From Octopus vulgaris (Eukaryota), in assembly GCA_951406725.2 (NCBI GenBank), contig OX597822.1:102734001-102798000 (forward strand): a stretch of 64,000 bases of DNA, written 5' to 3'. Shown here in pieces: positions 58,849 to 60,507 of this stretch. How positions within the stretch are numbered: the first letter of the stretch is position 1; every line of letters begins with the position of its first letter. The notes below the pieces were generated by a model, which was not told where the DNA came from, made no database searches, and worked only from the letters and a program-made list of their open reading frames with translations. A program made the translations under genes and the position numbers.

Positions 58849-59034
58849 TTATAATTAGGGTTCAGCAACGATTTGCTTTACCACATACCGAAGTTTAGAA
58901 ATAGCAGCTATTTCCTCTACTTTAAAAAAGAGATTCCCGGACAAAAAAGGAAATAGCTAAGTCTCTCTCTCTGGCTGCTATTTCTAAACTTCGGTATGTG
59001 GTAGAGCAAATCTTTGCTGAACACCTAATTATAA
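58849..59034. mobile_element. Fold-back element (MITE-like), ~60-bp arms
   Basis: 58849-58908 pairs with 58974-59034 with ~3 differences; inner AGCTATTTCC/GGAAATAGCT pair as well. Confidence 0.8.
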
Positions 59035-59186: not shown

Positions 59187-59541
59187 TCAAGACTACAGGA
59201 CTATAAAATCTATCAATTTTCTTCACTGTTGTCTACATGTATTACAGCTATAAATGTGTGTGTGTGTGTCTATTGCACTGGCCAAAATACTGCGATGTTA
59301 TTAAAGACAAGACTATCAGTTTTCTTTATAGCAGCAAATTACAAAATACTTGTTGTTTACACCTTAATTTCATATTTTATTTTTTTTTTAAATATTAGCT
59401 TTAATAAACAATTACAAGAAAACAATCAGAAACAGAATACGAAAACATCACGTGTACATTGATAGACATATAGGTGTATATAGCCTATATGTGTTTAAGC
59501 ATATATATAGTGTATATGTGTTATATATATATATATATATA

Positions 59542-59726
59542 TTATAGAAGGAGCTTCTACAGGACTAGAACTGTTTCATTCAAATGAAATCATCAGGCTT
59601 CCTGATGATTTCATTTGAATGAAACAGTTCTAGTCCTGTAGAAGCTCCTTCTATAAAATAAATTAATTTACTCTGCCATGTATTGAGTACCTTATTTACT
59701 GTGGTTAACCCCGACTCAACCCGGGA

Positions 59727-59730
<4 letters not shown>
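59542..59730 (+). mobile_element. Penelope-like pLTR remnant with an inverted 5' copy, forming a perfect palindrome (56-bp arms, 3-nt loop)
   Basis: 59542-59597 is the exact reverse complement of 59601-59656; unique tail to ~59730; (TA)n on both sides; contains an HHR. Confidence 0.75.
59597..59645 (+). ncRNA. Type I hammerhead ribozyme motif
   Basis: Stem I GCUUC/GAAGC; CUGAUGA 59602-59608; stem II UUC-AUUU-GAA; GAAA 59621-59624; stem III ACAG/CUGU with 8-nt loop; GUA cleavage triplet ending 59640. The base of stem II is U-U rather than the usual R-Y pair. Confidence 0.7.
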
Positions 59731-59786
<56 letters not shown>

Positions 59787-60507
59787 ATATATATATTATA
59801 TTATATATAAACATAGACTATATATAGTACAGACATTGTAGATCATTACTGATGATTTACTAAAATTTAATTGACATTACAGGTAAAGAAGGTGGAGATT
59901 GCTGAGCAAATCGGCTTCTTTTAGTTTATAATTTCCCAAGCTACAATGCAATAAAAAAACATCAATAAATGTTTATGTAACATCAATGAAAGAAATTATG
60001 CTGTTACATATAATAATAATAATAATAACAAATAAGGTGTAAAGAGGAAGGATCTAAGATATCATTACAATATTGTAATAACTGTAATTGACGATATTGT
60101 ATTAATATGAGTTTCATAATTGTTTATAAAGTTGATTAAATGCAACAATCACTTCTTCTAATGAAACCTCAGGAACAAAGACTGCCACACACCTTTTCGT
60201 TTGATTAATATCTTTTCTTTTTTTTTTTTTTGCAGGTAAAAAACTATGGTTAATGTTTACACCTTATTATAGTAATTAGTTTGTTTTTTTTTTCTTGTTT
60301 TATTTATTTTAATGTTTTGTTCTGGGAGGAGAGATATTATTTGTCATTGATGGGGTTTTTTTTTTTTCATATATAAATATAAATATAACATAAGATTCAC
60401 TTCCTCTCACCAATAATAATACTTTGAAGAAGAGAAATAACTTCCTGTAATCTCATTCTCTTATAAACTCTTTTTTCTATCAGGCTTTCATAGACAGGAA
60501 CGATTTG

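Follow-up and report, generated by a model that had tools for sequence, protein, structure and literature searches.

How does a perfect palindrome that encloses a hammerhead ribozyme motif come to interrupt a TA microsatellite, and does it behave as a unit in its own right? The question is posed by a 189-bp insert at positions 59542-59730 of a 64,000-nt stretch of Octopus vulgaris DNA (OX597822.1:102,734,001-102,798,000), the whole of which is referred to here as the window. A first-pass annotation had proposed a recent, non-autonomous Penelope-like or retrozyme-type insertion whose RNA folds either as a self-cleaving ribozyme or as a long hairpin. The results below favor a different reading, to which we assign a probability of roughly 0.8: that what we see is the 5'-truncated, head-to-head stump left by a Penelope-like retroelement of the Hydra clade, which copies the initial segment of its RNA onto each end of a cut (TA)n target.

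The palindrome and its hammerhead motif

The perfect palindrome is borne out: exact 56-bp arms lie at 59542-59597 and 59601-59656 around a CTT loop, the runner-up among complex palindromes in the window has arms of only 15 bp, and the insert folds with z = −24.8, a stability equalled by 0 of 200 shuffles. The (TA)n flanks that had been described are present around the whole 189-bp insert (left part of the target microsatellite, 59522-59541; right part, 59729-59826), but not around the palindrome as such, since a 74-nt tail separates the right arm from the right-hand (TA)n. The left arm (59542-59597, minus strand) is an inverted pLTR copy: it begins near the inner of two end sites, which lies ~67-74 nt short of the 3' end, and extends back as far as stem I of the hammerhead. 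The right arm (59601-59656, plus strand), as delimited by the exact-arm search, is a direct pLTR copy. The tail (59657-59730, plus strand) lies between the two end sites and carries a small terminal hairpin, CCCG/CGGG, whose loop is AC-rich (59710-59725); in the parent element described below, tail sequence runs on for ~50 nt more, up to where the ORF begins. The head-to-head junction, GG-CTT-C (59596-59601, plus strand), is also the 5' strand of stem I, and corresponds to AGCTTC in the parent, the putative RNA +1.

Three other features were observed in the window. An inverted-repeat element at 58859-59034 (arms ~58859-58920 and 58965-59034), the sequence of which recurs beside three copies of the family (L040, L094 and L114), is probably a separate common repeat; 14 nt at 59193-59206 match the left arm at 13 of 14 positions, probably by chance; and a tandem repeat at 51734-52832 consists of 156-181-nt units with (TA)n tracts in between. 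The ORF list for 40000-64000, which is not a gene search, identified no host exon near the insert.

The type I hammerhead motif is likewise present: the descriptor matches once in the window (core at 59602, plus strand) and in none of 100 Markov-resampled windows. The motif spans 59596-59646 on the plus strand, has the Hydra-clade pattern (CUGAUGAU ... UGAAAC), and consists of stem I (GGCUUC/GAAGCU), the core CUGAUGA (59602-59608) followed by U, a 3-bp stem II followed by U and GAAA (59621-59624), and stem III (ACAG/CUGU) with an 8-nt loop containing the palindrome CUAG, with cleavage predicted after A59640. CUGANGA, GAAA and UH thus accompany three stems, as in type I hammerheads; positions 10.1/11.1 are U-U, not G-C, and U-U is also found in published Hydra-clade motifs. 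In the Rfam comparison that had been suggested as a check, Hammerhead_3 was matched at 13.3 bits, with an E value of 2.8 and below the gathering score of 48.5, and the other Rfam matches to the insert were to a generic hairpin (a microRNA model), with no further hammerhead. A search for diverged hammerheads with altered stem II returned 21 matches, all from the same family. Across 86 arm records, which are related and partly redundant, so that variation in them serves as a contrast and not as a test, common variants within the hammerhead occur only at N7, loop 2 and loop 3; the stems have no common variants, hence no compensatory changes to count, and no covariation was seen.

In the window copy a full stem I is available on the plus strand only (6 bp, vs. 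1 bp on the minus strand), the hammerhead of the inverted arm being without its 5' strand of stem I. That stem I is supplied by the loop is true of this copy's eroded tip, but not in general: the commonest junction is the loop-less CAGGAAGCTTCCTG (AAGCTT centre), found in 16 of 29 cases in a count that includes loci L031-L060, and other types include CTT (2, one of them the window copy), AAG (3), AGCTT (1) and AAGCT (2). As the AAGCTT centre gives both strands a full stem I, the strand asymmetry is peculiar to the window copy.

Folding predictions indicate that the hammerhead fold of the monomer has a P of 0.004 to 0.04 (0.004 for 59596-59650) and that a dimer of the parent 57-mer swaps stem III via the CUAG of loop 3; the ribozyme is accordingly modeled as weak in monomeric form and able to dimerize through that CUAG. 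The predicted P of the hammerhead fold is ~1e-51 when the insert is folded as a whole and 2e-4 when folding begins at the junction, and the ribozyme of a stump that is read through would, on these predictions, be a passenger locked in the hairpin. In one copy (L203), a C3>A change in the hammerhead core is present in both arms, implying that an RNA with a likely inactive ribozyme was copied.

The repeat family and its parent element

The terminal 30-mer of the insert has at least 2,017 exact matches in the 2.8-Gb genome (control, 0), and 40 scored matches at 96-100% cover the 189-bp insert over its full length. Pieces of the family occur in contigs of four public sequencing runs, none of which spans the whole stretch; in two of these runs, guessed to be RNA, contigs cover the family and not the flanks of the window locus. 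The family is therefore not peculiar to this assembly, and the dispersed 3'-end copies and the four runs together answer the concern, raised at the outset, that the palindrome might be an assembly artefact.

To describe copies we set position 59730 to 0, and we used as an unselected sample the first 100 listed matches on contig C1, all of which were fetched. An inverted arm ending at −69 to −59 is present in 77 of the 100 (43 of them at −67); the other 23 have none in that interval, and ~10 of these run far upstream. An inverted copy of the 0 end was found in 0 of 100 copies within the 1,500 nt examined. The (TA)n target is present at the right end in 97 of 100 copies ((TA)4 within 30 nt) and at the left end in 70 of the 73 with an adjacent inverted arm ((TA)4 or longer). 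Palindrome centre, arm length and filler vary from copy to copy, unequal arms and fillers being common, and 21 of the 100 direct arms continue into the parent's pLTR or 3' UTR, all of which speaks against the non-autonomous or retrozyme-type unit first proposed. Variants agree between the two arms of a copy: in 40/40 copies for loop 2 (four variants), 33/33 for N7 and 47/49 for an A/T site. That both arms share variants makes it likely that the inverted arm is made anew at each insertion.

Several copies have features of their own. Repeated TTTA or T runs occur at the inner end site, at left ends (L012, L073, L092, L218), and (CA)n at the outer end site, at right ends (L005, L009, L035, L099); both resemble a stutter as copying begins, of the sort that an enzyme related to telomerase might produce. 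The upstream flanks of L038, L057, L070 and L071 contain fragments that resemble the ends of further Penelope-like families, adjoin the same (TA)n tracts and have minimal hammerheads on the opposite strand. At L062 (G000:C1:57299500-57309400), two identical stumps stand 8.1 kb apart with identical upstream flanks, pointing to local duplication, and the 5' end of the unit is joined to non-(TA) sequence.

Some copies can be read upstream without a break through a microsatellite-rich 3' UTR to an ORF with a GIY-YIG domain, and at least 11 exact matches read on past the 3' end to the ORF. One locus (L152) has the order unit-ORF-unit with a period of ~4.3 kb; another (L257) has an unbroken 713-aa ORF between two pLTRs, with YRDD and VY..YIG; and at these loci and L161 the pLTRs are partial tandems. 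The window unit is identical to the pLTRs of L152 and L080 at 131 of 133 positions. A search at the protein level yielded 113 matches from 112 scored candidates, almost all of them at 90-100%. The single ORF of L257, with reverse transcriptase (RT) followed by GIY-YIG, is of the EN+ Penelope-like type, and its product aligns with 11 homologues at 37-43%. Pfam returned only a weak RVT_1 match (E 0.0096) and nothing relevant for the full ORF, and a PDB sequence search with a homologue returned no match. By eye, the protein has RWR, DKT, CNCPDKTTC (CxCX5C), CDLC-E and N-CMH (CxxC-E-N-CxH) and no CCHH; the Hydra clade is defined, in the available text of PMC8557442, by RWK/RWR, DKT, CxCX5C, CxxC/CxH around E and N, and no CCHH. 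The same text gives a length tendency of <3 kb, from which L152 departs, at ~4.3 kb from pLTR to pLTR.

We conclude that the insert almost certainly represents the terminal part, pLTR plus tail, of a Penelope-like retroelement of the Hydra clade, the clade being assigned from motifs and not from a tree with named references. It is a new family in a known clade, with a layout already published for Penelope-like elements, as far as the accessible literature describes it. Its structure is unremarkable, being the inverted-pLTR footprint already known for such elements; the interest is mechanistic. The core of the first-pass annotation, a recent Penelope-like insertion with a pLTR hammerhead and an inverted, truncated copy, is upheld by the parent with both RT and GIY-YIG, as is the linkage to these domains that it had suggested checking together with copy number (at least 2,017 3'-end copies). 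MITE and Helitron were considered for the unit and rejected, since its ends do not form terminal inverted repeats and it passes uninterrupted into an RT element. The parent ORF starts ~184 nt after the first base of stem I, which makes the stump both the 3' end of the element and the likely start of its mRNA.

Where the arms stop and how the stump would form

Arm 5' ends are concentrated at stem I: positions −136 to −130 account for 76 of 177, against 5.8 expected, and 48 of 177, a count inflated by perfect palindromes, lie exactly at −134, the first base of stem I. The cleavage site is not enriched (5 vs. 3.3 expected). The scarcity of arm ends there implies that the template was mostly uncut, and hence that the ribozyme had no part in making the stump. 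Among all fetched loci, 29 arms begin with AGCTT that the mirror arm cannot supply. With the first base of stem I as +1, TATAAA or CATAAA stands 29 nt before it in 61 of 64 arm records, whereas 14 of 22 sites in the spacer between box and +1 vary (86 records). Before AGCTT, 13 of 23 arms carry a non-templated G once four arms with a preceding base possibly derived from the mirror arm, and two mutated palindromes, are set aside; when four more possibly templated arms are dropped, the count is 9 of 19 (p 0.03 vs. 0.25), a small number with exclusions chosen by hand. An extra G is a mark of cap copying, and the G before AGCTT suggests such copying here.

A second Hydra family, with 43% amino-acid identity to the first, provides a replicate. 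It is very young, dozens of its 727-aa frames being unbroken; its hammerhead has 3,978 matches, and its stump layout is the same (loci L277-L306; for example, G000:C27:15433926-15436043). In its first 30 matches there are two end sites, 72 nt apart, one of each being present in 9/9 head-to-head pairs, in either order; the 30 arms divide into 8 that end at the stem I base (4 of these not in a perfect palindrome), 12 that continue upstream and 10 that end closer.

From these sequence patterns we judge it somewhat likelier than not that the parent RNA has its 5' end at the first base of stem I. Several points count against such a start: in both families the hot spot falls on a 4-mer that is its own complement (AGCT, CTAG) and could favor joins without an RNA end; the −30 box of the second family, TATAGA or TCTAGA, is not conserved; and the Drosophila Penelope promoter is described, in the available part of PMC2377424, as internal and TATA-less. 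An alternative, which we regard as doubtful, is that the pile-up reflects palindrome-directed joining at AGCT, an RT pause, or a 3' splice site (YAG/CTTCC) of the kind found in helix I of Drosophila Penelope. A 4-nt palindrome does lie at the hot spot in both families, a pyrimidine-rich stretch followed by TAG, CAG or AAG lies upstream, and the end of the D. virilis intron maps to helix I (accessible part of PMC4209133); but there is no such pile-up at the unit's other 4-nt palindromes, such as CTAG in loop 3, arms that are joined to fillers or (TA)n also stop there, keep AG and have no common upstream exon, and the TATA box is conserved at −29.

On the reading that we prefer, the enzyme would cut a TA microsatellite, and the parent RNA, starting at the first base of stem I with TATAAA at −29, would extend through the hammerhead and tail into the ORF. 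Both target strands would be primed at internal start sites, at ~+134 to +140 and ~+68, aided by a few bases of TA/AT match; both short cDNAs would run off the RNA 5' end; and the cDNAs would join via their self-complementary AGCT ends, or one would fold back and its extension pair with the other, a joining step that in the window copy would leave the CTT loop. Two-ended priming is the probable part of this scheme. Two outer ends are fixed, one of each per insertion (in the first family, inverted arms from the inner end in 77/100 copies and from the outer end in 0/100), and for an anole element the accessible text of PMC11167929 describes two internal sites at which RT starts, has both strands extended, and finds cleavage dispensable in vitro. 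The same text reports no strand difference in start site in vitro, which counts against the use of one of each. The full proposal, that the mini-palindromes are paired run-off cDNAs made by an enzyme dimer from one of each start site, on capped RNA that begins at stem I 29 nt after a TATA box, is tentative, and we put it a little short of even.

The same element might instead have formed the palindrome by self-priming on a single, perhaps antisense, fold-back template and not from two separately primed cDNAs. We consider this unlikely. It is the published proposal for rotifer Penelope elements (in the part of PMC3846280 available), the window junction G-CTT-C closes a 3-nt loop, and arm variants agree within copies; against it stand the loop-less form of the commonest junction, the occurrence of mirror-image junction types (CTT and AAG; AGCTT and AAGCT), the frequency of fillers and unequal arms, the fixed outer end of the inverted arm and its joining to (TA)n, and the presence in the second family of one of each end site in every head-to-head pair, in either order.

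That the palindrome is a non-autonomous element or retrozyme, transcribed and copied as a unit and switching between ribozyme and hairpin, is largely refuted and most improbable, for although there are many near-identical 189-bp copies and the isolated right arm can form a predicted three-way junction, arm lengths and junctions are variable and show a gradation to the full element, no head-to-tail hammerhead array occurs among the 100 unselected copies, the hammerhead fold has the minute predicted probabilities given above, the stump is without a TATA-like box, and the 64 arm mismatches show no A>G excess. The loss of the parent's promoter-like box leaves the proposed switch without an evident way to work; by prediction, moreover, the ribozyme cannot fold within the hairpin. 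An RNA-editing signature is absent from these mismatches (4 plus-strand and 8 minus-strand A>G-type changes, vs. 15 G>A or C>T). Dicer or ADAR action on read-through RNA is possible, and stumps, if read through, would be a large source of perfect double-stranded RNA in the genome.

If paired run-off copying is correct, the genome would preserve a trace of where transcription starts, of the two sites of priming and of the joining step in Penelope integration, and an inverted pLTR would need no antisense template. How Penelope-like elements form inverted repeats is called unresolved in the available part of PMC8557442, and in the literature searched, which covered few subscription papers, we found no description of run-off at the RNA start or of one-of-each start-site use. 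A young family with unbroken ORFs and thousands of footprints yields exact predictions for start site, priming sites and junctions.

Comparison with known systems

The comparisons that follow draw on the accessible parts of the published accounts. With Hydra-clade elements (Craig et al., 2021, PMC8557442; Hydra-1_Obim and Penelope-13_HM) the family shares the C-terminal GIY-YIG, the clade motifs and (TA)n targets. The hammerheads in the supplement to that paper have the same ctgatgat...tgaa-ac pattern, with the acag/ctgt-a stem III in three listed families, and Penelope-13_HM is alike in having an inverted 5' copy and hammerheads on both strands. The octopus element Hydra-1_Obim differs in hammerhead sequence, and the family studied here differs from the clade as described in its ~4.3 kb unit (vs. 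<3 kb), its long microsatellite-rich 3' UTR, its 8-nt loop 3 and its GFKS motif.

Non-LTR retrozymes (PMC7229834; bioRxiv 10.64898/2026.07.22.740005) have in common with the family the type I hammerhead and the link to Penelope-like elements, but are head-to-tail tandems of units that each contain a hammerhead, an arrangement found in none of the 100 unselected copies, which are head-to-head remnants left by a coding element. Poseidon of Anolis (Frangieh et al., 2024, PMC11167929) is the same in having two internal RT start sites that bound the tail, an AC-rich stem-loop, AT-rich targets, extension of both strands and an uncut RNA template. Its ORF starts inside the hammerhead, in contrast to ~184 nt after +1 here, and the use of one of each site, seen in the genome for the present family, was not seen in vitro for Poseidon.

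Opposite-strand hammerhead pairs have been described before (PMC4209133), and the insertions of EN+ Penelope elements (Arkhipova et al., 2013, PMC3846280) are the same in their head-to-head inverted pLTR, their palindrome at the junction and their tail at one end only. The family differs from these in its tail, ~67-74 nt here and 30-40 nt there, and in its thousands of ORF-less stumps, with junctions piled at one base.
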